Numbered from the stretch's first letter, positions 2,628 through 42,083 are shown. The stretch: 64,000 nt of DNA from Candidatus Helarchaeota archaeon (GCA_019058315.1 JAHPZH010000004.1:288001-352000), one strand, 5' to 3'. The notes: generated by a model from the sequence alone, not told the origin. Numbers and translations are program-made.

Positions 2628-2705
2628 ATGTTACATTCATTATTTATTTTAAGGGATAACGGCGTTTGGGTTTACTACAACCATTATTTTTTGAAAAGAG
2701 TTTAG
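2628..2705 (+). pseudogene. Displaced 5' stub of the longin-domain gene (attL side of integrated element)
   Basis: Translates MLHSLFILRDNGVWVYYNHYFLKRV*, matching VLHSLFILRENGICVFERHW at 41112. Confidence 0.8.
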
Positions 2706-2851
2706 CCCCAAAATCAAGGAAATCCAAAAAAGCATAAAAAAAGTTTCCCAAACCACAATACCAAAAAATCAAAAATCGTTCACACTTTAAAAATTTTGAG
2801 ATTTTCATAAAACGAATTAGAAAAAAAGAGATAAAAGAAAAGTAAAAAAAT

Positions 2852-4981
2852 TTAGAATTTCAAAAATAGATATTCAACAAGTAGCAATAATTTCATAATT
2901 TGTCGGTATTTAACAACAGTCCTTCTACTACATTTATGTTTCTTCACTAAAGCACTAGCTTTAACATTCTTATTATTCTTTATTATGTCATGACAATCCT
3001 TCATTAATTCCAAAACATTTGACTTTTTTCCCATTCTTCCGTTTAAAGTGTTAAACTTTATTTTGAAATCATCCTTCAAAATCTTGTGCAAATAGCCATA
3101 ACTTACATCATGTTTTTCAGCAAACTTAACCCAATGTTTTTTCTCATTTGGAATTTCCTTCAATTTATGCTGTTTATTTACTTTTGTATTTAACTTTATT
3201 TCTATATCGTTAAAAAGTTCTTTTCTTTGTTCCTTTGATAACCTTTTCGACTTAGAATAATTTAGACCTCTAAATTTCTTTTTAGGAAAATAATTCTTTC
3301 GAATTGTTGAAATGTATGCTTCTGAAGTTTCAAATTGCTCTGCAAATTCTTTTTGATTTAGTTCTAAGCCATTATCTAAAATCCTTTGTAGTTCTTTGAT
3401 TATTTCCTCATTTTTATTATCCTCAGTAAATTGATTATGATATCTCTTTTTGATATAATTGTTGTAATGGTTTATATAATCGAAATTATGCTCATTTAGA
3501 AAATAATGTGTTATTGCCTTAGTTCTCCTATCCTTGAATAAAACTTTGGTTTGCCATTTCCAAGAAGCATAAATCTGTTTTGTATTTTGTAACTTATCAT
3601 AACTCTTTCGCATAGTCCTACTAACCTCTTTGTAAGTTGTATGCCCCATTAAAGCTATTGCCTCATCTGGATTCAAATGATGTTTGTGAAAATCTGAACC
3701 AATAACATACCTAATGTCATGATAATTCACCCATTTCTTTGATTGTTTAATTAATTCCTTTGGTTTAAAATTGAAATATCTCAAAAATTCATCTAATTCC
3801 TCAGATATTGCGTAATCTGTTAAGTAATATTTCTTTGAAACCTCCCGTAAATACACGTTTAAACTGTTTTCATACATTGCTTGTTCTAACTTAAATGGAG
3901 AAAATATTACATGCCTTATCTGAATCTTTGGGTTTAATTTTCCATTGATATACCTAATTCTATTTCTTGTTTTCATGGTAACAAAGCCCAATAATTTCAA
4001 TAACAAGATTAATTTGTATTCAAAGCCCTGAGGTTTAAATTCCTGAAACCTAGCCCTCGATTTACATTGAATGTTGCCATTTTTCAAAGAATCAATGTAA
4101 TATCTAATTTCCTTAAGAATGTTTCTTATAACCGGATGAATGTAAGAAAATTTCAATCCTCTTGGTTTTTTCTTATAAGAGATTACCCAATCATCTTTTT
4201 TCAAAAACCATAATTCTTTCTCATCAAATCTTAATTCGTTTATCAATTGTTCCTTAGTGTAAATATTCTCCCATTTTAACCGGCAAATTTCAATCCTTCT
4301 ACTACAAAAAGCCAAATTCATCATGAATGAAGCTAAATGTAACAAAGTTTTCAAATGAATCCCGCGTACAGTTTTTTGATCCTTGCTTTTCTTTAGTTCA
4401 ATTTCCGATTTATGAGCTAAATAGTCATCAAAGATACAATTTAGAGTTTTCATCAATAAATTTAGATTGTGATATTCTCTTTGTTTTCCAGATTCATCAA
4501 TGTCATAAGGTAATTCAAAACCCTTCATTACAAATTTCTGTAAATCCTCACTTTCAAAGAAACCTAATAGCAAAGAATAAGCCCTTGTTAAATAAGTTCT
4601 AATGGTTGTAATGTTCAATAGCCCTACTTTATTTTTAGCCATTAACCAATTATAATATTGATTAATTACTTGTTTATCAATTTCATGAACATAGTTTAAA
4701 CCTAAGTGTTTTTTTGCAAAAGTACAAATCCCATTTTTATGGTAAATTTGTTTTAATGCTTTTAATGAACTTGGTTTTCGTTTATTTTTGTAAATTCTCT
4801 TATATTCTGTTAATGCTTCATCTAATCGGATTTGTCTATAATCAGTTTTAAATCCCATTTCTTGAAAAGATTCTTTGAATGTATCTTTGAGAAAATCTTT
4901 GAATAACATAGCTTTCTCATCTTTGGATAAATCTTGTAAAACATCAGCAGTTTTTTTCTTTGGAATAATTGCATTAGCCAT
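2852..4981 (-). CDS. Tyrosine recombinase/integrase with long C-terminal multi-HTH extension
   Basis: Catalytic R (CSRRIEICRLKW), K (KKKPRG), HxxR (YHDIRY), H (LMGHT), Y (RKSYD). C-terminal HTH-like segments; located at the element end. Confidence 0.85.
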   Translation of the reverse strand: MANAIIPKKKTADVLQDLSKDEKAMLFKDFLKDTFKESFQEMGFKTDYRQIRLDEALTEYKRIYKNKRKPSSLKALKQIYHKNGICTFAKKHLGLNYVHEIDKQVINQYYNWLMAKNKVGLLNITTIRTYLTRAYSLLLGFFESEDLQKFVMKGFELPYDIDESGKQREYHNLNLLMKTLNCIFDDYLAHKSEIELKKSKDQKTVRGIHLKTLLHLASFMMNLAFCSRRIEICRLKWENIYTKEQLINELRFDEKELWFLKKDDWVISYKKKPRGLKFSYIHPVIRNILKEIRYYIDSLKNGNIQCKSRARFQEFKPQGFEYKLILLLKLLGFVTMKTRNRIRYINGKLNPKIQIRHVIFSPFKLEQAMYENSLNVYLREVSKKYYLTDYAISEELDEFLRYFNFKPKELIKQSKKWVNYHDIRYVIGSDFHKHHLNPDEAIALMGHTTYKEVSRTMRKSYDKLQNTKQIYASWKWQTKVLFKDRRTKAITHYFLNEHNFDYINHYNNYIKKRYHNQFTEDNKNEEIIKELQRILDNGLELNQKEFAEQFETSEAYISTIRKNYFPKKKFRGLNYSKSKRLSKEQRKELFNDIEIKLNTKVNKQHKLKEIPNEKKHWVKFAEKHDVSYGYLHKILKDDFKIKFNTLNGRMGKKSNVLELMKDCHDIIKNNKNVKASALVKKHKCSRRTVVKYRQIMKLLLLVEYLFLKF

Positions 4982-4982
4982 T

Positions 4983-5186
4983 TTATTTAACCTCCATATT
5001 AATCTTTTTTAATATATCATTCAAATTCAACTTATTTTCTTGGTATAGCTTAATCTCATTATTGGATAACCTATACAGAATTTTGTCTTTCGACCTCTTA
5101 CGGATTCTATCATACTTATCCACAATGAGATAGCCATAAACCTTTTCTTTCCAATACACAAGTTTAATTCTTACCGAAATAGCCAC
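4983..5186 (-). CDS. Small basic hypothetical protein (possible excisionase/recombination directionality factor)
   Basis: 67 aa, basic, 1 bp upstream of the integrase start. Function is a guess from position. Confidence 0.55.
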   Translation of the reverse strand: MAISVRIKLVYWKEKVYGYLIVDKYDRIRKRSKDKILYRLSNNEIKLYQENKLNLNDILKKINMEVK

Positions 5187-5219
5187 CTTCTTAAAATTTT
5201 TTTATTAACCATTTTGTAA

Positions 5220-5293
5220 ATATACGGAAATTATATTTTATAAATATTTCCGCATATCATCAGAAAACCGATTAAATTAACGATATACGGAAA
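5220..5293. promoter_or_regulatory. Three copies of the ATAT(A/G)CGGAAA motif, two as an inverted repeat around a TATA-like box
   Basis: ATATACGGAAA 5220-5230, TTTCCGCATAT 5247-5257, ATATACGGAAA 5283-5293, in a divergent intergenic region. Confidence 0.6.
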
Positions 5294-5421
5294 ACCTCCT
5301 ATCTCATTCAAAATCAAAAAATGGGAATTTCTAATCAAAATGGACACTTTTCGATTAATCGAAAAGTTTTTGTTTCAAGCTTACAAGATATATAGTTAGT
5401 TAGATTCAGGATCTGCTATCT

Positions 5422-5958
5422 TTGGTATTGATGATTTATTATAGAGATAAAAAAACAGGCATGGTTTCGGCTTTAAAGAAATATGCTGGAGAAAAGTTGA
5501 TCAATAAGCAACCGGAAGGTGAAGGACTTATCATTATCTATTGGCTTGGAGGTAAAAGGAAATATCCAAAGATTAAGGGGAAAGGAAAGGCAAAGTCAAG
5601 AATAACCTATATCGGAGAATGGGAATATTTCAAACCAATTCCATACAATTTAGCCAAAAAAATTAATTATAAAATCATAAATGATGAGATTATAATGAAA
5701 AAAATAACTGATAAAAAAGATATTCTAACAAACTTTGCTTTAAACTGCATTGATTTATATTCCGGTAAAAAACTATCAGATGAGTTGAAAGAGGGGATAA
5801 AAGAAGAATTCATTGACTTATATAACGAATTGAGGAAATTGATAATCGAACCTGCTGACTCTCCAAAAATTTATGATTCAAAAATACTAAAAAAGCAGGA
5901 TATTACTAAAAAAATTAAGGCACAAGATAAATGGGATGAATATATTCACGGTACTTGA
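5422..5958 (+). CDS. Hypothetical protein, basic beta-rich N-terminus (possible DNA-binding)
   Basis: 178-aa ORF; IYWLGGKRKY...ITYIG pattern resembles three-stranded DNA-binding modules of archaeal MGEs. Confidence 0.6.
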   Translation: MVLMIYYRDKKTGMVSALKKYAGEKLINKQPEGEGLIIIYWLGGKRKYPKIKGKGKAKSRITYIGEWEYFKPIPYNLAKKINYKIINDEIIMKKITDKKDILTNFALNCIDLYSGKKLSDELKEGIKEEFIDLYNELRKLIIEPADSPKIYDSKILKKQDITKKIKAQDKWDEYIHGT

Positions 5959-5959
5959 A

Positions 5960-6148
5960 ATGACTGAAAGTAAAAAAGATATTTTGGTAAGATTAATAGA
6001 TATCGAATTCGAATTAAACGCTACTAAAAAAATAGTTAAGAACTTAGAAAAAAAGATTGATGGATTAGTCGAATTATTGAAAAAATTCATAATAGTTAGT
6101 GAATCATTCCAAGCTTGTAAGGAATCTCTAGCAGAATTCGAATTTTGA
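5960..6148 (+). CDS. Small coiled-coil hypothetical protein
   Basis: ATG at 5960, 1 bp after the previous stop (ORF track start 5936); heptad pattern. Confidence 0.55.
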   Translation: MTESKKDILVRLIDIEFELNATKKIVKNLEKKIDGLVELLKKFIIVSESFQACKESLAEFEF

Positions 6149-6326
6149 AATGATTTAATTTCTTTTATCAGATTTCAATTGTCCAGGATTATTTATTTTA
6201 AAAATAGGTAATAATAATTATTAACTCACACAAAATCTAGAGAGATTTTGAATTAAAATATAGGAGATAGAAAAGATTAAACCTTCAAATACATATCTAT
6301 TAGATATAAAAGAATACTTAAACGAT

Positions 6327-7007
6327 ATGGTAATAATTTTTCCTAATAATAAACTTCATAATGCCAATCTAAAAATTTTAAATTCATTTTTAGAAGTGAA
6401 AAATCGTAAGAAACCCTTTAATTGTCAAAAATGTGGATTTTGTTGTTATTTTGATCCAAAAAGGGAATCAAAAGCCGGAATTACACTTCTTAAGGATGAA
6501 TATAAATTCTTTAGGAAATTAGCTGAAAAAGAGCAAATTGATATAAGATTAGATCATCGTGAGAGAGGATTCTTTTCATATTCATCTATTGATGAACCTC
6601 AATATTGTTTTTTATTTGATAAACAAAATAAGCTTTGTAAAATTTATGATAAGCGACCATTATATTGTAAACATTATCCATTATATCTTATGGATTCAAA
6701 TCCAATATTTGATAAAATTAGGATAAATCAGTCTATAATTTTTTCTTATATTCTTATTAATACAGTTTATTCTTGTAGAGAAATTAATCGTTTGTATGGA
6801 AAAAGCACAAAAATGAATTTATTTGAACTATATCTAACTTTAGATTTCTATTTCCCATCAACACTTCTAAATGATTTAAGAAAATTAGCAAAAATATATG
6901 AAAATGAATATTCAGATTTAAATGTAAAAGTAATTCTAAATTTTGAAGACTATATTGAGATTATATATAAAAATTACGTTGGAAATAAACCAGAATGGGA
7001 AATTTGA
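6327..7007 (+). CDS. YkgJ family (CxxCxxCC) cysteine-cluster protein
   Basis: FNCQKCGFCC...CFLFD...CKIYDKRPLYCKHYP signature. Confidence 0.88.
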   Translation: MVIIFPNNKLHNANLKILNSFLEVKNRKKPFNCQKCGFCCYFDPKRESKAGITLLKDEYKFFRKLAEKEQIDIRLDHRERGFFSYSSIDEPQYCFLFDKQNKLCKIYDKRPLYCKHYPLYLMDSNPIFDKIRINQSIIFSYILINTVYSCREINRLYGKSTKMNLFELYLTLDFYFPSTLLNDLRKLAKIYENEYSDLNVKVILNFEDYIEIIYKNYVGNKPEWEI

Positions 7008-7035
7008 ATAAATTTTTTCCCTCATTCAATATCAT

Positions 7036-7248
7036 TTATTTCTTCTCCCAAAAATAAAACTCGATAGCATCTCCCAGACTTTTAATCTTATTCTCAATCA
7101 AATCCTTTAACTCGGTAAGAAAATTTCTTAATTCAAAATTCTCATCAGTAATTTTTTTGCAAAAATCAACAATCTGATTATTTTTAACCCTTCTCCTGAC
7201 AAACTCTTCAAACGATAATTTCTTTTCATTTTCATCCATGTCGAACAA
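7036..7248 (-). CDS. Small coiled-coil hypothetical protein
   Basis: 70-aa ORF with plausible composition, converging on YkgJ. Confidence 0.5.
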   Translation of the reverse strand: MFDMDENEKKLSFEEFVRRRVKNNQIVDFCKKITDENFELRNFLTELKDLIENKIKSLGDAIEFYFWEKK

Positions 7249-7849
7249 CTCTTAATTATTGAGGGAAATCAAAAGTTTGACCAAATCGGGAACACTAAAG
7301 TTCTTGATAGACAAATTTACTTAACAAATGAAAATATTAAGCAACCTAATAAAGTTTGTGGAGTATCTGATAAGTAATAAGTGGAGAATCAGAGTATCTC
7401 AAAAGTATCAGAGAGTTAGAGTATTGTGAAAGTAAAACGGTAAATTTTAAAAAGAAGATTTTCTTGTTTTCTAATATATTATCTGGTTTATATAAAAACC
7501 CGACAATATATTAGTAAATCCCCAAACCACCGTTGGATCCTCAGATATTGAATTATTGAATTTCCCCTGTCACTTTTCAAAGTTAAAATTTCAAAATATG
7601 TTTCAGGACATCACAAATTTTAATTCTCAAAAACCCTAATATCATCAGATTAATTGCAAAAATTGGATATACAAACTTAATTTCATTATTTTAATTTCTC
7701 GGTTTAATTAAATCATTTTTTTTAGTTATAATAAGTATTTAATTATTTAAATAAGAATAATATCAAACAATAAATAGGTAAAATCAAAATTTTTTTTTGT
7801 CATTAATGTAAATAATAACTATTGTAATTTTTGGGAATTTGGTGAGATT

Positions 7850-9187
7850 TTGTCGAAACGATTATCATTGGAAGTAAAATCGATTAATGATTTGAAAATT
7901 CTTGATAAATACCCTCAATACTGGAAGGATATTACATCATTTTTAGTAATTAGCTCAAAAACCCTATCAATAAAAGATAAACAAGGTCTAATAAAAAGAT
8001 TAAAACAAATTAACATACCAATTCATGTTGAATCTTATTCTTGGTGGTTCACACATCCAAGAACTAAACAGAAATTATCAGATCCCGATAATAACCCAAA
8101 TTTTGAAAAAAACCCAAATTTATTATTTGCTATTCAAAATATCTCTGAAGATTTAATCTTAGAAGGATGGGAATCAACAATTCTCCATGATAAAAATTTT
8201 GATTGTATTGATAATTGGATAGGATATCAACGAAACTTGAATAAAAATTTTAGAAAAAAACAACAATCCCTAAATAAAATAAAATCTTTACGCTCAAGAT
8301 TAGTTAAAAAAGATGATGCGTGTGCTGAACTTGAGTCATTTTCCCTTCCATATATTCCAATTATCGATATTTCAGGTCATAAAGAAGAAGTAACAAATGC
8401 TATAAATGCAAATATTGAAATTATTAAATATTTCAATAATAAAAATACTCAAACATTTAAGAAGCAAGTGTGCCCATCAATAGTAATTAATTTTAAAGCA
8501 ATTGAATGTAAAAGTCTAGAAAAATTGGTAAATTTGATTAAAGATAATTTTGAAATGTGCTGGATTTGGTTCGTTGATATAGACGATAGAAAACTTCCAG
8601 AAATTGATATAAGAAAATTATGGAAATATATCAGATATCTAAATAGAGGGAGTAAAAAAATCTTTAGACTAAGATTGGGAGGATTTTTATCCCATAGATT
8701 CTTAAAAAATGAATTTCCATCAATTTGTTCTTTCATAGATGGTTGGGGTGCTTATAATTTTACACCAAATTATTATCAAGATGAAGAAGATATAACTTAT
8801 TATGGAAGAAAGAGACATGTTTTCTCCCCACAATTAGGAAGATTTGTTTCAGGCAATACTTTAAGTAAAGAGTTAGAGCAGAAAAAATGTAATTTCAAAT
8901 GTGATTGTTTTGCTTGTAAAAAACTAATTGCGGAATCAAAATTAACAATTCCAGAGATGGAGTATAAAAGAAATGAAGCTAGAAAAGAAGAGAAAAGATT
9001 GAACATAGAGTCAGTTGGTGTATCCCAAAATAAGCAATCAGAATTTTTAAGACTTCATGGTATGATATGTTTTTATAATTTATTAAAAATTAGTGATAAA
9101 GAATTCAGTAATCTTGAAAAAAAGTGGGTCAATCCAGGATTAAAAAAATGGAAAATCATAGAAAAAGAAATGAGTAGAGGTGATTAG
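7850..9187 (+). CDS. Hypothetical protein, possible TGT-like/beta-protein-like TIM barrel with CxCxxC...H Zn site
   Basis: Alternating beta/alpha pattern; CDCFAC followed later by LRLHG near the C-terminus; no DSGG motif. Confidence 0.5.
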   Translation: MSKRLSLEVKSINDLKILDKYPQYWKDITSFLVISSKTLSIKDKQGLIKRLKQINIPIHVESYSWWFTHPRTKQKLSDPDNNPNFEKNPNLLFAIQNISEDLILEGWESTILHDKNFDCIDNWIGYQRNLNKNFRKKQQSLNKIKSLRSRLVKKDDACAELESFSLPYIPIIDISGHKEEVTNAINANIEIIKYFNNKNTQTFKKQVCPSIVINFKAIECKSLEKLVNLIKDNFEMCWIWFVDIDDRKLPEIDIRKLWKYIRYLNRGSKKIFRLRLGGFLSHRFLKNEFPSICSFIDGWGAYNFTPNYYQDEEDITYYGRKRHVFSPQLGRFVSGNTLSKELEQKKCNFKCDCFACKKLIAESKLTIPEMEYKRNEARKEEKRLNIESVGVSQNKQSEFLRLHGMICFYNLLKISDKEFSNLEKKWVNPGLKKWKIIEKEMSRGD

Positions 9188-10223
9188 AATTAATCAATTA
9201 ATAGAAGAAAGTGAAGAAGATTTTAACGAAGATAATTATGATTTATTATTGATATTATTAAATAGTCTTTATCCAAAAACTATTCTAAAGACTCGTTTAA
9301 TGAAATTAAGTTGGTTTTTTTTTGAACTTGGAAATCTACCAAAGATATTAAATTTAGAAAATTACTCAATGGACTTTGAACCTCATTTACTTGGTGGAAG
9401 CGATTATGCTATTGATAATAATCTATCTATTATGGAAAATGATGGATTAATAGAAACAACACAGAGAGTATCAAACCAAGCAAATGATTATGAAGTAATT
9501 TCAATTAGAAAAGATAAACATGATGAAATTTCAGAAAATATAAAACAATATTGGATTGATAAAGAAGCAGATAAATTTATTAATTTAAATGATTTTAAAA
9601 ATTCCCTTGATATTTTTAATTCATTATTTAAAGATGATAATAGCCTGATTGGATTTTTATATAGATTAGATCCTGAAAGAACCAAGAACTCAATTATTAT
9701 TTCAAAAGTAAAGAAAATCATGACACCTGAAAAATTTAAGGATTGCATTTACAATATATTTCAAAATTTACGACCAATTTTTTCATTAACTTTGTTTTAT
9801 TCAAGAAAACAAGCGAATTCAGTAGTAAGAATTTTAAATAACGAAGAAAAAATCATTGAAATTAATACAGAATGGTTATATAATTTATCTGAAGCTTTGG
9901 TAAACCATTATTTAAAGAATGAAAATGAAATAATGAATAGAATAATAAGTAAACTAGCTGGTCAGATATCATTAAAATGTCGAACAGGAGGGTACGAACA
10001 ACTTGAGAAATATTTTGTTATTATTGAAGGATTATGGAGGTATAATTTATCGTCAGATATCCCAGTTGAATTCTTAAGACAAATAACCGTTAATCTTTTG
10101 TTTAATATTGAAAATAAACAATTATTAGAAACAGAGATTATAAATTTACAACAATTATTCAAAAAGCATGATCTTGAAATTACACCAAAAATTGACCTCT
10201 TTAAAACTTATTTACAGGTTTAG
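9180..10223 (+). CDS. Panacea/SocA (DUF4065)-like winged-helix protein with helical C-terminal extension
   Basis: KTRLMKLSWFF...FEPHLLGG...IDNNLSIMENDGLI pattern; overlaps the upstream gene by 8 bp. Confidence 0.6.
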   Translation: MIRINQLIEESEEDFNEDNYDLLLILLNSLYPKTILKTRLMKLSWFFFELGNLPKILNLENYSMDFEPHLLGGSDYAIDNNLSIMENDGLIETTQRVSNQANDYEVISIRKDKHDEISENIKQYWIDKEADKFINLNDFKNSLDIFNSLFKDDNSLIGFLYRLDPERTKNSIIISKVKKIMTPEKFKDCIYNIFQNLRPIFSLTLFYSRKQANSVVRILNNEEKIIEINTEWLYNLSEALVNHYLKNENEIMNRIISKLAGQISLKCRTGGYEQLEKYFVIIEGLWRYNLSSDIPVEFLRQITVNLLFNIENKQLLETEIINLQQLFKKHDLEITPKIDLFKTYLQV

Positions 10224-10226
10224 AAT

Positions 10227-11102
10227 TTGGATGAACGCACAAAAAGTATAAATTCATTAATTATTGACTCAGACGCCATTATCAATCTTTTTTTTGGGAC
10301 AGAAAACGCACGAAAAGACATAAAAACCATCATTAAAGATAGTGAGAATGTTTTCATCACCACTTACACAATAGGTGAGTTAAAAAGAGTCATCTTAAGT
10401 ACTTTAATAAATATTCATTATACAATCCAAAATTGGATCATTAAGGAGAAATGGGAAGATTTTAATAAAAAATTATTAATCCAGAGAAGTAGAGATATTT
10501 TTCTAAAACTATATGGAGGAAGCGAACGGAAAACTTTACGATTAAAAGAATTTTATATGTCGATATTTCTCGATTTCTTATCAGATACTTTTGATTTACC
10601 AATAAGAGATTCTAGAACTGTATTTTTAAAAAGATTAGAGAACTATATCGAGAATTTTGATGTTCTATTTATTAATGATGATTTTGAAAAAAGGAATAGT
10701 TCAATGAATTGTAATTGGCTAAATTATAAAATTCAAATAGAAAATAAGGAATTAAAATTTTATAAAAAGGGCTTTGGATGTTTAAAATTAAAATGTAATA
10801 CATTAAATGAGATATTGAAGTATTTTACATCAAATAAGGAAAGATTGCTAAAGGTTTATAAAATAAAAAATTTTAAACCAATTCCGAATTGGTATCCTAA
10901 TTTCAAAATGTTATTTAATTTATTTTTAAACAAGATGTTGGATAAAAGCTATAAAAGATTATCTTATAAATGTAAATCGTTAGGAGACTTAATTCTAATT
11001 ATCGACACTAATGAAAATGAAACTATCCTTACTTCAAATAATCGAGATTTTCAAGCTACAACTCATATTCTTGGAATCAATTTAATAATTTTTAAAAGAT
11101 GA
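10227..11102 (+). CDS. PIN-domain ribonuclease with large Cys-containing insertion
   Basis: IIDSDAII, TYTIGEL, LGDLIL and ILTSNNRDF supply the PIN acidic residues. Confidence 0.78.
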   Translation: MDERTKSINSLIIDSDAIINLFFGTENARKDIKTIIKDSENVFITTYTIGELKRVILSTLINIHYTIQNWIIKEKWEDFNKKLLIQRSRDIFLKLYGGSERKTLRLKEFYMSIFLDFLSDTFDLPIRDSRTVFLKRLENYIENFDVLFINDDFEKRNSSMNCNWLNYKIQIENKELKFYKKGFGCLKLKCNTLNEILKYFTSNKERLLKVYKIKNFKPIPNWYPNFKMLFNLFLNKMLDKSYKRLSYKCKSLGDLILIIDTNENETILTSNNRDFQATTHILGINLIIFKR

Positions 11103-11251
11103 TTGTTAATTTTAAAAATTAAATTTTATCGGCTTTTTCTAAACCCTAGATTCTCTAAAAGCTATTAGACTTGAAAAGGTATTAAGTTTAGCTCAGCTAA
11201 CCTGAAAGGTTCAAATTATTGTATGGTCGAATGTTTATAACCCAAAAATAA

Positions 11252-11996: not shown

Positions 11997-12025
11997 ATTC
12001 TAACTTCCTAAAAGTTAATTAATTA

Positions 12026-29606: not shown

Positions 29607-31532
29607 TTATAAGAAAAGTAACCAAAGGTTAGGAATTATTAGCCAAAGTACTAATATAACACCACTTAAACCAATACTGAATAACATTAACTTTTGAAAT
29701 TGTTTTTGCCTATCCTTTTCTATTTGATAATCAATTTCCTTCTCTGTTGGCGGTCTTTGATATTCCTTTTCTAATTTTATTGATATATCAGTTCTATGAC
29801 CTGCCATTTCTCTTTTCTTTTGACCACGTTTATAGAGATAATAGCCAATTACAACGATTATAGCTATCACAACACCAATTATAACATAAACCCAAATATT
29901 CTTAAACCAATTCAAAGAACTAAATGGATTTTGTGCCATTTCCAAAGCATCAGCTACCGCATCAACCCATTGAGGATTAACTAAAACTCCACCCGCCAAA
30001 ACTCCACGTGGTAACCCGTCAAATATATCATCACCCCGTTCTTCATCATAGTAACCCAATTGACCATTTACATTAGAACTATGTGGAGTATAGTTGTAAT
30101 ATGCACCAAAATAAATATCAGCTTGAAAAGTTTCCCAAAGATAGACATTTCTAACTTCATAACCGTTGATTGTTACAGGATATATGTCGTGCGACCAATC
30201 ACCCGAAGTATGCGGGGTTATTATCAATGGCGGTATTGTTGCACAAACTCCATAATCAACCCGTTTATGTTCATAGTGTATCTTGTGTTGAAGTTGATAT
30301 AACTGTAACATAGGTCGCATTTTAAACCAATCAGCAAAGAGCAAACTATCTAATTGACCAATTGAAGAATCTATAAATCTACCGCGTATTGTAATATCTT
30401 GAGAATTATTGATTTGGTCTTTGAATGTTCTTGGTGATGAATTTTCTGGCAAACCCGCAATTATATGACCGCGTTGTATTGTGTTTAATGTTGGCGGTGC
30501 ATCATAATAACCGTATGCAGAAGTACCTTTTTTACTTACTCCGTCTAAAGCTCTTGAAAATGGTACTAATGGATTACCGCCAAGCACCAAATCAAGAACA
30601 TCCCCAATTTGATCATTTCGGGTATAGGTTTCAAAACCGCCCTGATCAACATCAGTCATTAATCGGTTTATCTGTACCGTTGATTCATTATGAACTAATC
30701 CCATTTCCGATTGCTTCTTTGCCACATCACCTATATAGGTATAGGTTTTACCCGTATAACTGTAATTTCCTAATTCGTGAGCTATTACCCGTTTAAAGTA
30801 ATCGGGTAAGGTTTCGCTATTCACAAACAGTCTAAATAAGACATTGGAATGTAAGATTTTTTGGCTAATATTATCTAATTGTGCTTCACCAATCTGATAG
30901 CTTGGCATTGAGAAATATTTTTTTCCAACGACATTAGAATCCGTAAAGCAAACGGGAATGATACCAACCATTCCCCCCGCTGTTACCCGTTCATCTAATC
31001 TACAAATCTCATAAGTTTCCTCTATTCGTTCAGGTCGCCCAAGATAATCAAATGCTTCACACATTGTTACATATAGGATTTGCCATTCTACCGTAAATCG
31101 CTTTACAAATAGAGTTTCACCGTCAATAAAAATTTGTCCTTCATACCCTTCGTCAATAATATACGGGGTATTCTGAAATATCTTAAAACTTGGATCATTC
31201 GTCAATTCTCCATTATAATAATCGCTTTGTATATCTACCGCGACAGTTGGCTTGTTAGTTACAGGATCAAGAGAATCTAAATCCAAAAATTTAACAGGTC
31301 GTACAGAAATCCAACTTCTAATATCCTCAGTCAGTTCTATACCTGTTGTTGGCGGTATATAGAAAAAATCTGGAATTGTCGCGTTATCTTGAAGTATTCT
31401 TGTAACGAAATCATTATTAGCTTGGTCTAAATTCATTTGAAATATCGTATTTCCGATTGTCATTTGTCCCATTGAAATAAAAAAAGGTAAAAGGATTAAA
31501 AGAGCTATTATTTTTTTCCGAATTGGTTTCAA
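29607..31532 (-). CDS. Large secreted/surface protein with two C-terminal TM helices (spike-like)
   Basis: Signal peptide MKPIRKKIIALLILL, ~510-aa beta-rich ectodomain, aromatic membrane-proximal segment, two TMs. Confidence 0.7.
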   Translation of the reverse strand: MKPIRKKIIALLILLPFFISMGQMTIGNTIFQMNLDQANNDFVTRILQDNATIPDFFYIPPTTGIELTEDIRSWISVRPVKFLDLDSLDPVTNKPTVAVDIQSDYYNGELTNDPSFKIFQNTPYIIDEGYEGQIFIDGETLFVKRFTVEWQILYVTMCEAFDYLGRPERIEETYEICRLDERVTAGGMVGIIPVCFTDSNVVGKKYFSMPSYQIGEAQLDNISQKILHSNVLFRLFVNSETLPDYFKRVIAHELGNYSYTGKTYTYIGDVAKKQSEMGLVHNESTVQINRLMTDVDQGGFETYTRNDQIGDVLDLVLGGNPLVPFSRALDGVSKKGTSAYGYYDAPPTLNTIQRGHIIAGLPENSSPRTFKDQINNSQDITIRGRFIDSSIGQLDSLLFADWFKMRPMLQLYQLQHKIHYEHKRVDYGVCATIPPLIITPHTSGDWSHDIYPVTINGYEVRNVYLWETFQADIYFGAYYNYTPHSSNVNGQLGYYDEERGDDIFDGLPRGVLAGGVLVNPQWVDAVADALEMAQNPFSSLNWFKNIWVYVIIGVVIAIIVVIGYYLYKRGQKKREMAGHRTDISIKLEKEYQRPPTEKEIDYQIEKDRQKQFQKLMLFSIGLSGVILVLWLIIPNLWLLFL

Positions 31533-32464
31533 AGTGTTTCACCTTCCAATAACACATAGTTATCATAGGGATCATCTATCCAATCTTGACCTAATATTAC
31601 TCCTACTCCAGATATTTTGTAAAAGTAACCACTTACAAAGAATGTTTCACAACAATAGCATAATTGACCTGTTGTAACATTAAAACTTCCAATATTGTAA
31701 ATTGGGCTTAAGAATCCGTCAATCTCCATATTGGTAACCGTACCGTTCCAATACATCCAAGAATTAGTTCCCTTAGTGTTTTTACTGACTGTTAGAGCTT
31801 TATGTTGATAAGTTCCATTGGGTAAATAAAATCCTTCACCCCAAAGTGATAAATTCGTGGCGAAACCGTCATTTGTTATTTCAAAGGTTATTTGGTGAAA
31901 TCCATCAGTAATATCGCTTACTGAATTTTTTGAAAAATTCCCGTCAATAGCTTTAATCTCAAAACTCATGGTTGTATTCATAGCTCTCCTTTTTAGAAAA
32001 TAGGTATTGACATAAGGATCACCTGTTGAACTTCCACTTCCATTAACCCCAAAAGCCATATAGTGATAACCCGTCAAATTAACAAATGCAGTCAAAGAGC
32101 TATTTGATAGGAATGTTACATTTGTTAAAACCGTTGTATGATAAGATTCATTTCCGTAATGGTATAGTTCTATCGGTACGTTATCAAAATATGTGTTATT
32201 TACTGAATCTTTTAGTCTAATCTTAGCTAAACCGTACGGCATTGCTGGTGGTTCTGGTTTTGGAAGCAACCCTTCAAGCAAATAGTAGTTAGTTGCATCT
32301 TGGTACGCTTCTAATTGAGGGTTTAAAGCTACAATACCACCAACAACAGCTAGAGGAACTAAAACAATAAGTAAATAGGTTACATTCTTACGGGAAAGTA
32401 TTTTATAACCATTCCCCGCCTTTTCAACCCCTTTAGATTTTTCTTTAGGTTCTGTTAAACTCAT
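31529..32464 (-). CDS. N-terminally anchored, heavily N-glycosylated beta-rich protein
   Basis: Single N-terminal TM; about a dozen N-x-S/T sequons. Confidence 0.72.
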   Translation of the reverse strand: MSLTEPKEKSKGVEKAGNGYKILSRKNVTYLLIVLVPLAVVGGIVALNPQLEAYQDATNYYLLEGLLPKPEPPAMPYGLAKIRLKDSVNNTYFDNVPIELYHYGNESYHTTVLTNVTFLSNSSLTAFVNLTGYHYMAFGVNGSGSSTGDPYVNTYFLKRRAMNTTMSFEIKAIDGNFSKNSVSDITDGFHQITFEITNDGFATNLSLWGEGFYLPNGTYQHKALTVSKNTKGTNSWMYWNGTVTNMEIDGFLSPIYNIGSFNVTTGQLCYCCETFFVSGYFYKISGVGVILGQDWIDDPYDNYVLLEGETL

Positions 32465-33890: not shown

Positions 33891-33930
33891 TTTCTTTTTA
33901 AATCATCTTTAATAACATTATTATTTTCCT

Positions 33931-34942: not shown

Positions 34943-35162
34943 ATACTAATTTTGACGTATATTTCTAATAACGGAAATAAACCTATATTTATAATAAAAT
35001 TACTTAGCTTCTGACATAAAAACTTAATGTATTATTGGGATAATGTACAGTATTTTTACTGTTAAAAGGGGCAAAAATATCCAAAAAAACCACTTACAAA
35101 TTTAAAATGGGTAAAGCCATATAAAATAGTAGCTAAATTCATAATATCAACCTTAAGGATTG

Positions 35163-35444: not shown

Positions 35445-35449
35445 CTTCA

Positions 35450-35471
35450 TTTTCCAATTTTTATTTTTTTT
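35450..35471 (+). terminator. Archaeal oligo-T terminator-like tract
   Basis: T-rich run (ttttccaatttttatttttttt) right after the 35444 stop. Confidence 0.4.
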
Positions 35472-35487
35472 ATATGGGATTTTCAAA

Positions 35488-36369: not shown

Positions 36370-37885
36370 AAAATTAGAGTTTTCAACTGAACCTGACAAA
36401 ATAACTATTAAAAAAATTGAATTTGGGCTTAAAATTTTATCAGAAGATAGAATAACTTTCTTACATGCGATTACACACACCCAAAGAAATAAATATCTTG
36501 AACAAAGATACCCCGATTTTCCAAAACAAATTAAAATTGAAATTGCAAAGGCAATTCACGATGTAATGAACGGAATTATCCAGCATTTAAGCCAATTGAA
36601 TGTTTTTCTTGATGATTACAAAGATGATAAGGATATACCTTTTCTTCTTGAAAATATAAAAGAACATGCTAAAAATATAATTTCATTTGTTAATCTTTCG
36701 GGTTTTTCTATTTTAGATGATATGCAATTAAGGGCAAATTATTATCAAATTACATTTGATTTAATAAAGATTTTAGGATTAATTGAATGTTTAAAAAATC
36801 CTCAAGATAGTGAAATAGCTAAAATTTTCGATTTAAATTTAAGTTCAATCCGATTTAATGAGAAATTAATAATCTTAATTAGTGAAATAAACCAAGAATC
36901 GTTAAAAGATAACATTTTAATTGATAAATGGGTAATGGGGTTAGAAACAACTAATGAAATGATGATCCATTTTAAATACATGGTTAAAAACCTTAGTAGC
37001 TATTTTTTCCTTATTCGATCAAGCAATTACCCCATAAAAGAATATATCATTTCAGCAATTTTCAGGGTAATTTATTTTATTAATGAATTAATTTTACCAA
37101 TAAATTTTGATGAAGGAAGGGTTTATGTTTCTCCAAGAGATTACATTGAAATCTTTGCAAAATATGAAAATAATCTGAGGGAATTAATAGGTTTATTGGA
37201 AATATTTTTTCAAAACTTCAATCATTTAGCCATAAAACCAACTGAAAGTAATGTGATTGAATTATATGTTGCAAAAGATTGTAGATTATGCAAGATTTTT
37301 TTTGAAAACAAGTTATTTGAGTACATACAAAATATGTCTATTAATCTGGATAAAGGATTAGCAATTTACGACTCAACAGATGATATTAACGCTTTAGCTA
37401 GACGTTTCTTTTATACAATTAAATTTGTTCCTTCAATTAGATTTCCAAGCATTTCAAATAATTGGAAATGGTTAAATATATTCCCATTTAAAGATGAGGA
37501 ACAAGATGAAAAGTTAGATATTGCACCTTCAGAAGCTTGTAAAACTGCCACTATTGAAATAAATAATTATCTCTTTGGGGCTTTTTCAAATATCATTCCA
37601 ACTCTTAATAAAAGCAAAACTCAGAAAAAAGGAAAAAATAAGAATAGGGAAAAATATTTGGTTAAATTGAATAAAATAATGGAGATATTTCAAAAAGATC
37701 CTGAAACTCCATTAACAATTAAAGAAATTACTGATGAAATAAAAGAAAATTACAGCAATACTAATTATTTTTGTAAGAAATTAATCAAAAAAGGGATTTT
37801 ATATACCGAAGATCCGAAAAGTCTGAGGGTTAAAGCTTATAGATTAAATTTTGATAAATACAATTTCGAAGTTCAAAGGAGTTAA
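36293..37885 (+). CDS. Hypothetical protein: helical N-terminus, thioredoxin-like CxxC segment, C-terminal winged helix
   Basis: IELYVAKDCRLCK...IKFVPSIRF (Trx-like, cis-Pro VP); PLTIKEITDEI...CKKLIKKGIL...AYRL (wHTH); AGGAG before TTG. Confidence 0.62.
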   Translation: MPKKKQKPKRIIKKVKKIKKTIKTTKKLEFSTEPDKITIKKIEFGLKILSEDRITFLHAITHTQRNKYLEQRYPDFPKQIKIEIAKAIHDVMNGIIQHLSQLNVFLDDYKDDKDIPFLLENIKEHAKNIISFVNLSGFSILDDMQLRANYYQITFDLIKILGLIECLKNPQDSEIAKIFDLNLSSIRFNEKLIILISEINQESLKDNILIDKWVMGLETTNEMMIHFKYMVKNLSSYFFLIRSSNYPIKEYIISAIFRVIYFINELILPINFDEGRVYVSPRDYIEIFAKYENNLRELIGLLEIFFQNFNHLAIKPTESNVIELYVAKDCRLCKIFFENKLFEYIQNMSINLDKGLAIYDSTDDINALARRFFYTIKFVPSIRFPSISNNWKWLNIFPFKDEEQDEKLDIAPSEACKTATIEINNYLFGAFSNIIPTLNKSKTQKKGKNKNREKYLVKLNKIMEIFQKDPETPLTIKEITDEIKENYSNTNYFCKKLIKKGILYTEDPKSLRVKAYRLNFDKYNFEVQRS

Positions 37886-37980
37886 AAGTTTGAAGTACAG
37901 ATTAAAAGATTTTTCAAAAACCATTAATTTAATCTCGAACTTCTACCCACCAATCAATTCAAAATCTATCGAGTCAGGGA

Positions 37981-38574
37981 TTGAAATTGGAAATAAGTTA
38001 TAATCAATACGGATTGCAAATAAACAAGAAAGTTTTCAGCATATTACAATTTTACAGATTAGAAACCTTTAATACCGATTTATTAGAAATAATCAAAGAA
38101 TCCATTAAAGAAAAGAAAGCTAATTCAATAATTTTAAAAAATAATGCAGAAATTAAAGCTTATGAGAAAATAAAAACCGATAAACCAATAAAAAATCTTG
38201 GTTATACGAATATAGGGTTAAATGTTGAAAAAAATCTTTATCATTTATGTAATTTGACTGAAAATCATAAAGAACTAAATGAAAAGCTTATTTTATTAAT
38301 TAAAGACTCAATTAAAACGCTTAAAAATAACTCTATAATCCTAAAGAATGATAAAAAGATTGAAGCGATACATGAAAACATCTATAATGAAATTACAAAT
38401 GAATTATGTTGGGGAAAATTAGCTTATTGTTGTCATTGTAAAAAAGATGATTGCATCAGAGTTATTGTTCTTAAGGAATTGGGAATTTCTAATAAAGAAT
38501 ATACAGAAATTAAAGATAAAATGGAGTTGGAATTTCAAAAATTAGTTAGAAAAAAGAAACCCGAATGGTTTTGA
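37981..38574 (+). CDS. Internally duplicated (RHH-like) protein with C-terminal Cys cluster
   Basis: Repeat IIKESIKEKKANSIILKN / LIKDSIKTLKNNSIILKN; CWGKLAYCCHCKKDDCIR. Confidence 0.62.
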   Translation: MKLEISYNQYGLQINKKVFSILQFYRLETFNTDLLEIIKESIKEKKANSIILKNNAEIKAYEKIKTDKPIKNLGYTNIGLNVEKNLYHLCNLTENHKELNEKLILLIKDSIKTLKNNSIILKNDKKIEAIHENIYNEITNELCWGKLAYCCHCKKDDCIRVIVLKELGISNKEYTEIKDKMELEFQKLVRKKKPEWF

Positions 38575-38616
38575 ATATTATAACAATTAATAATAAATGA
38601 AATTCTAACCTATCAA

Positions 38617-39591
38617 TTATTTTATCTCCAAATCTTTAAGAAATTCGTCTAAAAAAGAAAAATCTTGTTCAGTCGGTTTGTATTTTCGAGTAGGATGTTT
38701 CACATTATTTCTAAGGATGTTTAATTCATCAATACTTCTTAAAAATGCTTTTTTATTGCTTTGAAAGTTTGAAAATGGTTTTTGGTTTATAAAATGTTTC
38801 CAATTTTTATCTATAATTTCTTTTAATTCTACTATATCCGTATAGTCATATACTTTTCCTTGACCCTTAGCCTTCTCATATTTTTTACTACACTCTATTC
38901 TAATACGTTCAGGAATTCCTTCAAACCACCAATCCCGATTATCTGGGAATACATCTTTTAAAATTATTTCAATTTTTTTATGAATACAATTTTCAATTTT
39001 ATCCATTTTATCAATTGCTTGATGTTTCTCCACATCTTGTGGCTCGGTATATTTTTCTTTTTTTATTGATTTATTTTTAAATTCTTTTAAATAATTCCTG
39101 CCAAGATTTGAAATAGTCCAAAAATAATGATGCTTTCTATCAATCATCCCAAGATCTTCTAAATATCTCCCAATCCTCCAAAATAAAGCTGTTTTTATTT
39201 GTTCATCTTCCATTTCGTTAATTTCTTTTAAAAGTTTTTTATACTCCACATCGCATCTTGAAGGATTTACATTCCATTTATTATTCAGGATTTCTAAAAT
39301 TTTAATTCCCACACTAAAAAATAGTGGCTTTTCTAACGATTCTTCATGTATTAATATACCGATAGAGCCAATCTGTATATCTGCAAATTCCGTTCCCAAA
39401 TAACGTTTCCACCTAAAATAGTCTTTAGATTGTCCATCATAAAGTTCTTTTTTCAAGTTTTTTTCATCAATATTTTGATCAAAGTTTGATATTTTTGTTA
39501 AAAGTTCGTTAAATGATATAACCTCATCATTTAATTCATTTTGATATAAAATTTTTAAAATTACTTCTTGAATTACACTAGTTTCCATCAT
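38617..39591 (-). CDS. Tandem winged-helix + Swt1-like HEPN domain protein
   Basis: C-terminal IENCIH...DWW...YDYTDIVELKEII.KNW..F...LRNNVKHP (RxxxxH). Confidence 0.78.
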   Translation of the reverse strand: MMETSVIQEVILKILYQNELNDEVISFNELLTKISNFDQNIDEKNLKKELYDGQSKDYFRWKRYLGTEFADIQIGSIGILIHEESLEKPLFFSVGIKILEILNNKWNVNPSRCDVEYKKLLKEINEMEDEQIKTALFWRIGRYLEDLGMIDRKHHYFWTISNLGRNYLKEFKNKSIKKEKYTEPQDVEKHQAIDKMDKIENCIHKKIEIILKDVFPDNRDWWFEGIPERIRIECSKKYEKAKGQGKVYDYTDIVELKEIIDKNWKHFINQKPFSNFQSNKKAFLRSIDELNILRNNVKHPTRKYKPTEQDFSFLDEFLKDLEIK

Positions 39592-39592
39592 T

Positions 39593-39889
39593 TTATGCGA
39601 CTTCTAAACCTGTTTTTCTCAATTCTTCACGTAATATTCTTAAAAATTGCGTTTTCAATTCAAATTTTGTTTGTTGATAGAATGAATCTTGAATAGATGT
39701 TTTTAAACTGACTGATATAGATCCAGATTCAAACTTAACTTTAATATCTAAATCTGAAAGTTTTGAAAACTTCGGATAGATATTCTTTACGATTAAGAAA
39801 AATTTCTTTTTAGCTGTTTCAACTGCATCATTAACCGCTTTCATTATATTTTGTCCACCGATTATATTGCCAGATTTCAATTTTATCAA
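39593..39889 (-). CDS. Hypothetical protein
   Basis: 98 aa; 1 bp upstream of the HEPN gene. Confidence 0.55.
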   Translation of the reverse strand: MIKLKSGNIIGGQNIMKAVNDAVETAKKKFFLIVKNIYPKFSKLSDLDIKVKFESGSISVSLKTSIQDSFYQQTKFELKTQFLRILREELRKTGLEVA

Positions 39890-39918
39890 AATAATTCGCC
39901 TTGAGATTAATTATATTT

Positions 39919-40272
39919 TTAATATTGGGGAATAATTTCCATTTTTTTTAATTTTCTTCCATCAATTTCTTCTATGTCCCTAATGGTTTTTAATCTATTA
40001 GCCAAACCTTTGATTAATATACTATGACTGTTATAATCCGTTGTTACCTCTTCTCCATCATCAAATATCATCTTCAACTGAAATTTTACGGGTTCTTCTT
40101 CCTCTTTATCATCCAAAGCTTGTAATTCCCCACTCTCAAACTTTTTGACTTCTTCAGGTGTAGCTTTTCTAATCGTAACAGTTGTTGATCTCCTCAATTT
40201 TGGCTTATACACGTCTTTAACCCAATAATAATAATATTTTTTTCCCGATTTGATTTTTTTTATTCTTGGCAT
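39919..40272 (-). CDS. Hypothetical protein with basic GKKYYY beta-sheet DNA-binding-like N-terminus
   Basis: MPRIKKIKSGKKYYYYWVKDVY pattern; C-half similar to 40478-40705. Confidence 0.65.
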   Translation of the reverse strand: MPRIKKIKSGKKYYYYWVKDVYKPKLRRSTTVTIRKATPEEVKKFESGELQALDDKEEEEPVKFQLKMIFDDGEEVTTDYNSHSILIKGLANRLKTIRDIEEIDGRKLKKMEIIPQY

Positions 40273-40477
40273 TGATTAACCTATGGGAAGGAAGTATTTT
40301 AAAGTTCACATTCGACAAAATCAACCGACAATATGCGGAACTATTCTCTTATACTAAAATATTCGATAAATCTTTAATTAATTAAATAACCAATTAAAAT
40401 TATTGTCGGAAATTTGCGGAAAAAACCATCTCGAAAAAAGCTCAATTTCATGTTGTAATAGCAATATATCAAAAAAA

Positions 40478-40705
40478 TTAGTTTATTGGAATTGGTTCAA
40501 TTATTAATTTCCTATACATTCTTTTTTTTTGCATAAATTTATCTAATTTAAATAATCTGTTTACCAAAGCCCCCATACTTTTATAAGAAACTCTTTCAAG
40601 ATTCCCATTTCCCCAATTAATGATTAGCCGGTATTTCAAACCATCTTTTTTATTTTGCAAGTAATTGCCTCCTGAATGGAAACTGTATTTCAAATGAGAT
40701 CCCAT
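40478..40705 (-). CDS. Small hypothetical protein
   Basis: 75 aa; KYRL..NWGNG...YKS...L similar to the C-half of 39919-40272. Confidence 0.55.
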   Translation of the reverse strand: MGSHLKYSFHSGGNYLQNKKDGLKYRLIINWGNGNLERVSYKSMGALVNRLFKLDKFMQKKRMYRKLIIEPIPIN

Positions 40706-41111
40706 CTTGGCATTAACTTCTTAATATTTTTATTGTAAATGATTCTAATATAAAAACTTTATATATAATCTTATTAGGTAACATACGGAAATTCTCATAA
40801 TCTTTATATAAATGATGTAGAAAACTTCTTATTTTACTTGACAAAAACGTAAGTTTAACTTTAATTGGTCTATTTTTGCTCTAATTACCGATAAATTAAG
40901 AATATAATTATATACTTATTGCTAACATAGTATTAATATTATAATACTCTCTATTTTTAGCCCTAACATGCAAAAAACCTTCATACCCATACTTTCTTAT
41001 TCCCGCCCTCCCACCCTTTTCAATGGGTAACAATTTTTGATTTAGTCATAAGGCGGTTTTAGAAACTTTTGAACCTTGTACTCTTCTAAATTTAACGGAA
41101 TGACGAAAAAA

Positions 41112-42083
41112 GTGTTGCATAGTTTATTTATACTTAGAGAAAACGGCATTTGTGTATTTGAGAGGCACTGGATTGAGACGGACATCGACGCACATCTGTT
41201 CTCTGGCTTTATAACTGCCTTAAGCGCCTTTGCAGTCGAATCTATGGGTAAAACATTCCAATCGCTGAAATTGGTTAAAGAGCAGAGACTTGCAATTTTA
41301 AAACATCCCTATGCACCTATTATAGGTGTCATAATCGCGGATTACAGGGATAATGGGTATTTATTAAATAAAATTCTTGAGAAAATTTTGAATAAGTTTT
41401 ATCAGATCTTTCAAACTGAAATAAAAATTGAAGATGCCTCATTAATTGGCAAAACAAAAGAGAAATTCCCACAAGAAATTGATATCATACTAAAAGGAAA
41501 AACTGCAGAGCGGAGTTTTGTTTCATTATTTATTGGTTTCTTAGCTGGGAGTGGTCTTTCAGTAATAATAATTCTATTTATTTTAAGTTGGGGAATAAAT
41601 TTTGCCTATGGGGGTGGAATACAAAATTTATTTTTTGCTCCTATTTTTATTAATCTATTTGATGGTATGCAACCCTGGGAATTTCTAGACATTCAACAAA
41701 TTGCTGTTATCGCTATGGGACTCGTTTTTGTATTTTTCCTTCTTACATATTTCGGTCCTGGTTTATTAGGCGCTTATATTGCTGGCAATCGGAAATTAGG
41801 GGTAATTAATGGACTATTATCTGTCATAGGAGGATTATTAATTGCCCTAATTTTTCAAAATATACAATTATTTCTATATTCAATTAATATGCTACCTGTA
41901 TTTGTTGGATTTTCTCCATTAATAATAATATTAAATATATTAACAGGATATTTTGGAGGTCTATTAAGAGAAATATATAGGTTATATCCCTTACCTGGGA
42001 AAGATATATCAGAAAAAGTAATGAAACATGTAACAATCTTAGTTAAAAAAACCTTTCCATCGTTAGATAAATCTGAAGATTGA
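41112..42083 (+). CDS. Longin-like domain protein with C-terminal multi-TM region (integration target, restored)
   Basis: LHSLFILRENGICVF...LFSGFITALSAFA...IGVIIAD...LEKILNKF is the Asgard longin-like pattern; ~5 TMs follow. GTG 41112 aligns with ATG 2628; alternative starts 41100 or 41076. Confidence 0.78.
   Translation: MLHSLFILRENGICVFERHWIETDIDAHLFSGFITALSAFAVESMGKTFQSLKLVKEQRLAILKHPYAPIIGVIIADYRDNGYLLNKILEKILNKFYQIFQTEIKIEDASLIGKTKEKFPQEIDIILKGKTAERSFVSLFIGFLAGSGLSVIIILFILSWGINFAYGGGIQNLFFAPIFINLFDGMQPWEFLDIQQIAVIAMGLVFVFFLLTYFGPGLLGAYIAGNRKLGVINGLLSVIGGLLIALIFQNIQLFLYSINMLPVFVGFSPLIIILNILTGYFGGLLREIYRLYPLPGKDISEKVMKHVTILVKKTFPSLDKSED

Follow-up and report, generated by a model that had tools for sequence, protein, structure and literature searches.

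In Escherichia coli, phage 21 and e14 occupy icd, where attP carries a substitute gene end with mostly synonymous differences and the gene stays functional. In the dusA islands and prophages of Proteobacteria, the element supplies a new 5' region and the target is kept whole, part of the former 5' end stays behind at the opposite junction, and putative promoters exist both before integration and after it (Farrugia et al. 2015, PMC4482086). A survey of 68 elements in Thaumarchaeota placed 39 in tRNA genes, 15 in intergenic DNA and 14 in the 3'-distal part of protein genes (Krupovic et al. 2019, PMC6563490), and Sulfolobus spindle-shaped virus (SSV)-type integration is described as splitting the integrase gene itself (PMC7253208). 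Here we examined a stretch of 64,000 nucleotides (nt) from a Candidatus Helarchaeota archaeon (GCA_019058315.1, C1:288001-352000; the window), in which an element of ~38.5 kb appeared to have integrated site-specifically in the first codons of a longin-like/transmembrane gene and to have repaired that gene with a start of its own. We put the probability of this reading at about 0.8.

The dusA islands are the closest known analogue, in that integration at the 5' end restores the gene and leaves a stub. The dusA targets are bacterial genes for a tRNA-modification enzyme, with a recognisable integrase clade and with excision detected by the polymerase chain reaction (PMC4482086), whereas the present case involves an Asgard archaeon, a longin-like membrane-protein target and a nearly orphan recombinase and is known from sequence alone. 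The Thaumarchaeota elements are similar in being site specific with short attachment (att) sites, in forming tandem arrays where a site is reused and in having boundaries verified against occupied and empty loci, but no 5'-end target with a replaced start was reported among them (PMC6563490). The SSV-type elements share the use of archaeal tyrosine recombinases by integrative viruses and plasmids; unlike them, the window has an intact integrase open reading frame (ORF) with the att site outside it. At icd it is the 3' end that is replaced, in a bacterial host and with no start or promoter supplied, whereas here it is the 5' end. No archaeal element that occupies the 5' end of a protein-coding gene and rebuilds its start was found in the Thaumarchaeota survey (PMC6563490) or by term searches of Asgard mobile-element papers, no literature search having been aimed at this question. 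The principle is known from dusA; the domain of life, the recombinase lineage, the target and an att pair that can be recognised at the peptide level only are new.

At the left junction, an ORF of 25 codons (the stub) encoded MLHSLFILRDNGVWVYYNHYFLKRV. At the right junction, the gene encoded 323 amino acids (aa) from a GTG codon at 41112 or 327 aa from an in-frame ATG at 41100 (MTKKV...). The stub began ATG TTA CAT TCA TTA TTT ATT TTA AGG GAT AAC GGC GTT TGG GTT TAC and the gene, from the GTG codon, GTG TTG CAT AGT TTA TTT ATA CTT AGA GAA AAC GGC ATT TGT GTA TTT. The peptide likeness extended over 20 residues, 12 of them identical (MLHSLFILRDNGVWVYYNHY versus VLHSLFILRENGICVFERHW), and DNA identity across the first 48 nt, counted by hand, was ~69%. 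The longest identical run at the two junctions was TTATTTAT, of 8 nt, and the second longest was AACGGC, of 6 nt. Direct-repeat and k-mer searches for a conventional att repeat between 1500-3000 and 39500-42200 returned AT-rich 12-mers at most.

As ~68 matches to the longin-like N terminus were present in the genome (5.79 Mb, 12 contigs), including a tandem pair on contig 2, chance similarity or a fragment of a paralogue needed to be excluded. In a six-frame tblastn search of the whole genome, the top match of the stub was the start of this gene (E 4.5e-4); the runners-up had E values of at least 0.13, and the best of those were not gene starts. In the reverse search from the gene, the stub outranked the two nearest paralogues (C2:73081 and C2:74027). 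Genome-wide, stub and gene start were each other's best match, a likeness that is more than chance. An earlier note on this DNA had given the sequences of the stub at 2628 and of the gene start at 41112, and both were present at those positions; the concern that a different paralogue might match the stub better was not borne out by tblastn in either direction. The same note was right that the att pair would be hidden from a DNA repeat search, which gave nothing beyond the AT-rich 12-mers, but was mistaken in stating that only AACGGC.TTTG is shared, the longest identical run being TTATTTAT.

Occupied sites were detected in two other Helarchaeota metagenome-assembled genomes, on the contigs L034 (an extended form of L028, GCA_054384095.1) and L029 (GCA_054384215.1); orthologues of the gene were 58 to 67% identical and annotated as Candidatus Helarchaeota. 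The element in L034 was related but shorter and occupied the same position. The element DNA preceding the gene (the P arm, 39935-41123) was 93.8% identical to L034 over 1190 aligned columns, in comparison to 64.2% for the gene body, and sliding identity between the window and L034 dropped from 0.9-1.0 to ~0.5-0.8 within 41105-41150. The promoter-proximal 252 nt of the P arm were 94% identical to L029 and 90% identical to L028/L034, and L029 retained a proximal P arm that was 88 to 94% identical. The P arm was contiguous with other element genes and ended inside the first codons of the same gene in all three occupied hosts, each of which had a start cassette, ATG RCG AAA AAM GTG TTG CAT ART, before the gene. 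In this cassette (41100-41123 in the window, L034:17939-17962 and L029:7914-7937), GTG stood at the position of the native ATG, and an ATG lay four codons 5' of it, encoding MTKK, MAKN or MAKK.

At the empty sites (L030/L031, L032, L010 and L011), the gene started with ATG TTx xAT TCN and the upstream DNA was unrelated to the P arm. In a tree of the gene body, L034 and L029 were sisters and the window grouped weakly with the empty-site contig L032, so that the occupied hosts were not monophyletic, with weak support. This grouping and the contrast between arm and gene identities indicated that the P arm is mobile DNA that has moved horizontally between diverged hosts. The earlier proposal that the element lies inside a longin-like gene, with its right arm giving a synonymously recoded start (ATG TTA CAT TCA replaced by GTG TTG CAT AGT), was strengthened by the fusion of the same arm in L034 and L029 and by the empty sites elsewhere.

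The left junction was resolved by comparison with L034, in which a stub at 6578-6652 matched that of the window over its full length and read VLHNLFILRENGVWI, a stop, DVQ, a second stop and FLKRI. Both stubs contained a TGG codon and an FLKR tail, and the ~160 nt of arm that followed them were 77% identical (the window P' arm against L034 6598-6765); the Trp encoded in both stands where every real gene has Cys. Consensus residues were kept at 7 of 13 positions in the P' arm of the window and at 6 of 13, with two stops, in L034, whereas real genes retained 10 to 12 of the 13. Ahead of the stub start, the DNA had no similarity to the P arm and was 42% identical to the region upstream of the L034 stub, which is the background level; its ATG start lacked the four-codon extension, as in native orthologues. 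Since the stub tail and downstream arm were common to L034 and the upstream DNA was unrelated, the right-hand part of the stub is element derived. The stub is thus a chimera in which host DNA comprises only ~4 to 7 codons and codons 8 to 25 are the decayed gene copy of the element. This amends the earlier reading of the stub.

From these comparisons the crossover can be placed within codons 5 to 13 (2640-2666 and 41124-41150). Within this interval, TTATTTAT is the best candidate for the core because it sits where identity among the three P arms begins to decay, and TATTTAT was present in five of five junction sequences and in the empty site L032. The alternative, AACGGC, lies to the left of the TGG/TGT difference (2667-2669 and 41151-41153); as the att core favoured in the earlier note, it remains inside the permitted interval but fits the drop in identity less well than TTATTTAT. 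An inverted match between the two arms had a core motif, GTRAACRATTTTTGATTT, that was kept in L034 and L029, and may represent an arm-type recombinase binding site. The junctions of the L034 element carried a 40-nt repeat with one mismatch. This repeat could reflect a normal attL, the native 5' end of that host being similar to that of the element, or it may be the trace of an earlier element. Use of the L034 left junction to prove the presence of tandem elements (old P arm, core and P') was rejected, as a simple attL whose core spans 40 nt explains it just as well.

We propose that the element recombined site-specifically with the first codons of the chromosomal longin-like/transmembrane gene by means of an attachment site that mimics the 5' region of that gene, beginning ~35 nt before the start codon and reaching to around codon 25. 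At attR, the P arm is joined to the host gene body, giving a complete ORF of 323 to 327 aa behind element DNA. At attL, the old upstream region of the host and codons 1 to ~4-7 are joined to a P' arm ending in a stop, giving the 25-codon stub. An adjacent gene for a divergent tyrosine recombinase of 709 aa would supply the catalyst, and strand exchange would take place at TTATTTAT or, alternatively, at AACGGC. The coordinates of the features are collected in the table.

Table. Positions of junction, element and flanking features in the window (positions counted from its first nucleotide)
Feature	Position (strand)	Remarks
Stub ORF, 25 codons	2628-2705 (+)	stop at 2703-2705; chimera of host codons 1 to ~7 and an element relic
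Repaired longin-like/transmembrane gene	41100-42083 (+)	element-borne start and host body from ~41132; ORF intact
Integrated element (proposed)	2648-41131	~38.5 kb, one core copy counted
B arm of attL	2561-2639 (+)	native upstream region and native codons 1-4 (ATG TTA CAT TCA)
Candidate crossover core, attL copy, TTATTTAT	2640-2647 (+)	longest identical junction run
Candidate crossover core, attR copy, TTATTTAT	41124-41131 (+)	longest identical junction run
Alternative crossover core, AACGGC	41142-41147 (+)	attL copy 2658-2663; inside permitted interval
P' arm	2648-2830 (+)	decayed copy of gene codons 8-25 followed by a conserved non-coding stretch
P arm	39935-41123 (+)	117-aa gene, 75-aa ORF, ~400 nt non-coding, start cassette
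117-aa gene of P arm	39919-40272 (-)	
75-aa ORF of P arm	40478-40705 (-)	
Start cassette, ATG ACG AAA AAA GTG TTG CAT AGT	41100-41123 (+)	end of P arm
Candidate arm-type site	2739-2793, inverted relative to 41017-41070	blastn 74.5%, 55 nt, E 0.002
Putative tyrosine recombinase, 709 aa	2852-4981 (-)	147 nt from stub; ORF intact; att site outside it
tRNA-Arg(CCU)-like gene	1841-1950 (-)	Rfam tRNA match 1852-1910; anticodon loop CUCCUAA
GNAT acetyltransferase	2027-2560 (+)	Pfam PF00583, E 6.5e-15
HisRS	42084-43451 (-)	Pfam PF13393, 2e-67
tRNA-splicing endonuclease EndA	43411-44016 (-)	Pfam PF01974, 1.7e-21

The candidate recombinase was encoded by a single-copy gene. A word-index protein search with the 709-aa protein retrieved only the protein itself, and a HMMER search of 1.84 billion representative proteins detected only three distant relatives. 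The relatives P0010 and P0011 (E 3.7e-7 and 1.2e-5) matched PHROG integrase families with E values of 4.2e-5 and 1.2e-8, respectively, and Pfam PF00589 with values of 8e-4 and 3.6e-4 that fell below the cut-off. Candidate catalytic residues were assigned by eye, without a structure-based alignment, as R229, K271/272, H421-x-x-R424, H447 and Y461, an order in keeping with R-K-HxxR-H-Y; P0010 and P0011 likewise contained RR.E, H.IRY, GH/AH and a Y preceding D. These matches suggest that the 709-aa protein is a probable, very divergent tyrosine recombinase. The contexts of distant integrase homologues (L039 and L040) had no longin stub and no similarity to the arms. Short contigs of sediment runs X3 and X4, from two other metagenome studies, were 96 to 100% identical to parts of the integrase gene (3288-4684), which indicated that the element or its recombinase occurs beyond the source sample.

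A second arrangement of stub and full-length gene was present at the same gene in L035 (1124-3474; the same as L036), in which a 65-codon stub was followed by two ORFs (62 and 243 aa, with no family), the full gene and then HisRS, with ~1.2 kb from stub to gene. The replacement start was TTG TTA AAC TCT behind a Shine-Dalgarno-like motif, GAGGT. In L037 (1-886), from another sample, the left part was identical to the region upstream of the gene in L035 and the right part to the region downstream of the stub, with the switch point inside a 31-nt stretch common to all three sequences; the order is a P-O-P' arrangement, that is, an attP or a tandem junction. This mini-element was unrelated to the element of the window, and its ORFs included no recognisable recombinase. 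As its homology to the target comprised ~195 near-identical nt, homologous recombination is possible there. Both elements swap ATG for a non-ATG codon, and the 5' end of the longin-like/transmembrane gene is thus a recurrent landing site, with at least two unrelated elements using it.

Several observations weighed against site-specific integration with gene repair. The empty sites came from other hosts and none from the same species, and the identical run between attL and attR was only 8 bases, with the crossover placed by comparisons with distant hosts. The L034 copy of the element lacked the gene for the 709-aa integrase. This protein had no Pfam match at threshold over its full length, a fragment reaching E 0.033 with PF00589; PDB sequence and profile searches with it found no integrase; and an AlphaFold2 model built on a 4-sequence alignment had a mean predicted local distance difference test (pLDDT) value of 40 and was unusable. 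The class of the Ser codon (TCN in native genes, AGY in the element) was rejected as a native marker, as L035 had the opposite pattern, with AGC in the host and TCT in the element, and it was retained as local evidence only. Finally, neither a circular attP nor an excised attB of the element was found in scans of viral, metagenome and genome contigs or in Logan contigs, which is weak evidence of absence because these contigs were short.

In exact-pattern scans, no match was obtained for a 22-mer of the P arm (viral, metagenome and genome collections), a 24-mer of the P' arm (viral contigs) or a degenerate junction pattern (metagenomes). Logan contigs of four runs aligned to window positions 1-6000 were short only; attL was crossed solely by the contig of the source run, and no informative joint was present. 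Loose contig ends at 2557 were discarded as a junction signal, being due to short spurious matches.

Among the other explanations, a truncated and a full copy of a gene are the expected outcome of a Campbell-type event, in which an element bearing a copy of the 5' end of the gene entered by a RadA-mediated single crossover, and the mini-element of L035 and L037, with its long homology and no recombinase, shows the features of such a route at this gene. In the window, however, the homology comprises only ~60 nt at ~69% identity, with identical runs of at most 8 nt, which is too little for homologous recombination. Furthermore, a recombinase-like gene adjoins attL, and the junction falls at the same codons in the window, L034 and L029, hosts of differing sequence. 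We therefore consider homologous recombination improbable for the window element.

An origin of the stub as the relic of an old tandem duplicate or pseudogene, with the island inserted by unrelated events and the upstream arm being host DNA, would accord with the abundance of longin-like paralogues (~68, with the tandem pair on contig 2) and with the lack of a long att repeat. Against this, the arm is 94% identical between hosts in which the gene is 64% identical and is contiguous with element genes; native orthologues lack the arm; the stub tail and downstream arm recur beside the L034 element; and no paralogue resembles the stub as closely as this gene does. A duplicate origin is thus very improbable. 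An actual target in the tRNA-Arg gene or in intergenic DNA, with GNAT as cargo and the stub as a chance ORF, is scarcely credible: an intron-bearing tRNA does lie 700 nt to the left and tRNA genes are the usual archaeal target (PMC6563490), but there is no tRNA fragment or repeat at the right end of the element, the tRNA and GNAT occur on one contig in run X2, identity drops within the opening codons of the gene and not at the tRNA, and the stub match (E 4.5e-4 genome-wide) is repeated in L034.

If the gene was repaired by site-specific integration, its transcription may start in element DNA. We give about an even chance to the P arm acting as the promoter of the gene; the selected substitute start and the promoter of the earlier note remain a proposal. 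A sigma-70 promoter scan of the P arm gave scores not above those of shuffled sequences, with a model that does not apply to archaea, and an Rfam search of the arm gave a chance-level snoRNA match only. A broader proposal, which we advance tentatively and at somewhat less than even odds, is that Helarchaeota elements carry a promoter and start cassette that permanently seize initiation of transcription and translation of the longin-like gene, that the cassette is kept after decay of the element, and that such rewiring recurs in Asgard archaea. Should the gene be driven by the element arm, mobile elements would alter how a longin-family gene is regulated in those archaea that are most closely related to eukaryotes; if the broader proposal is true, they would be a recurrent source of regulatory rewiring for a family counted among the eukaryotic signature proteins. 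For a recombinase family that is nearly orphan, the attachment site is narrowed to ~27 nt, which could provide an attP/attB pair for Asgard genetics. The locus also illustrates that att pairs can escape DNA repeat searches, this one having been found through peptide likeness and comparison of occupied and empty loci.

Decay of an element with retention of its start cassette was suggested by L029, in which the order was ArsA, the 146-aa gene, RpiA, tRNA, GH2, MazE-PIN, the gene, HisRS and EndA and no stub or P' arm remained. The element of L029 appears to be largely deleted, and that of L034 has lost its integrase. Between GH2 and the P arm (L029:5903-7926) were a MazE-PIN toxin-antitoxin pair and two element segments of ~0.3 kb each, about 0.7 kb in total.

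The target protein was assigned to a fold by structure prediction, as no Pfam family, longin and roadblock included, matched it at an E value of 0.01 or lower. A model of its N-domain from eight homologues had a beta-beta-alpha-beta-beta-beta-alpha order (E2-9, E14-19, H27-45, E50-54, E58-64, E70-77 and H82-106) with pLDDT values of 56 to 80. In Foldseek, longin domains ranked first among PDB structures, namely those of AP-2 sigma, TRAPP Bet5/Trs23 and zeta-COP, with E values of 4e-4 to 7e-4 and template-modelling scores of 0.53 to 0.74 (normalised to target length), followed by the LAMTOR and MglB roadblocks. In this model the label longin-like is justified at the level of the fold alone, and the longin identity given in the earlier note agrees with an N-domain predicted to fold as longin/roadblock. 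The helices that follow the N-domain are ones that we take to be membrane spanning.

The G+C (GC) content of the element was 24 to 30% per 2-kb bin, with one exception (35% at 30001-32000), and that of most flanking bins was 30 to 44%. Its cargo included restriction-modification genes (a DpnII/MboI-type endonuclease and a type III-like methylase-helicase-methylase set), a HEPN protein, another gene with a weak likeness to integrases, a block of uncharacterised membrane proteins and many proteins without a family. The restriction-modification cargo was absent from the L034 element. In a search of the genome, the element was single copy and had no spacer-like match. Ten element proteins had no virion, terminase or conjugation match in PHROGs, and the element may be a virus, a plasmid or of another type. 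Three genes at 7667-11123 (445, 347 and 291 aa), with no Pfam or PHROG family, had ~94% protein identity in the L034 element, which suggests that this block is a core module conserved within the element family.

The left flank contained, in order, ArsA/Get3, a 146-aa gene, RpiA, the tRNA-Arg(CCU)-like gene on the minus strand and GNAT. In the tRNA-Arg(CCU)-like gene, the 5' acceptor and D-arm half is set apart by an intron at a non-canonical position; a permissive Rfam scan gave 28 bits against a gathering score of 29, and ARAGORN and a gathering-level Rfam scan missed the gene. A homologue of this tRNA adjoined RpiA in L029 and L034 and, in L032, preceded the native gene by ~190 bp. Contigs from X2 and X3, two sediment runs of another study, were ~97 to 98% identical to this flank: the X2 contig spanned the tRNA and GNAT (1700-2553), and those of X3 covered RpiA, the tRNA and part of GNAT (1230-2016 and 1991-2247). 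As these contigs span the stretch from RpiA to GNAT, GNAT is host DNA there.

On the right, the order of gene, HisRS and EndA was also present in L029, L030, L031 and L034; in L035 HisRS alone was visible after the gene before the contig ended. The outer synteny was kept across the other Helarchaeota contigs, and only the segment from the tRNA to the gene was variable. The adjacency of GNAT and the longin-like gene, which the earlier note had expected in relatives, was absent, the neighbour being GH2 or the tRNA. Because this segment is variable while the outer synteny is kept, the absence is no refutation of the integration, and the adjacency was not a valid test. In L030/L031, GH2 was followed by 120 nt and then by the gene. 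The GH2 glycosidase, intact in L029 and L030 (750 to 813 aa), was split into three ORFs of 213, 217 and 367 aa in L034 (2700-5144), where it adjoins the island.

Two further repeat structures were observed in the window outside the element. Four tandem paralogues of ~258 aa, spaced by ~0.9 kb, were located at 45564-48995. An ORF of 938 aa at 55000-57816 consisted of 126-nt and 69-nt tandem repeats and coincided with a patch of 44% GC.

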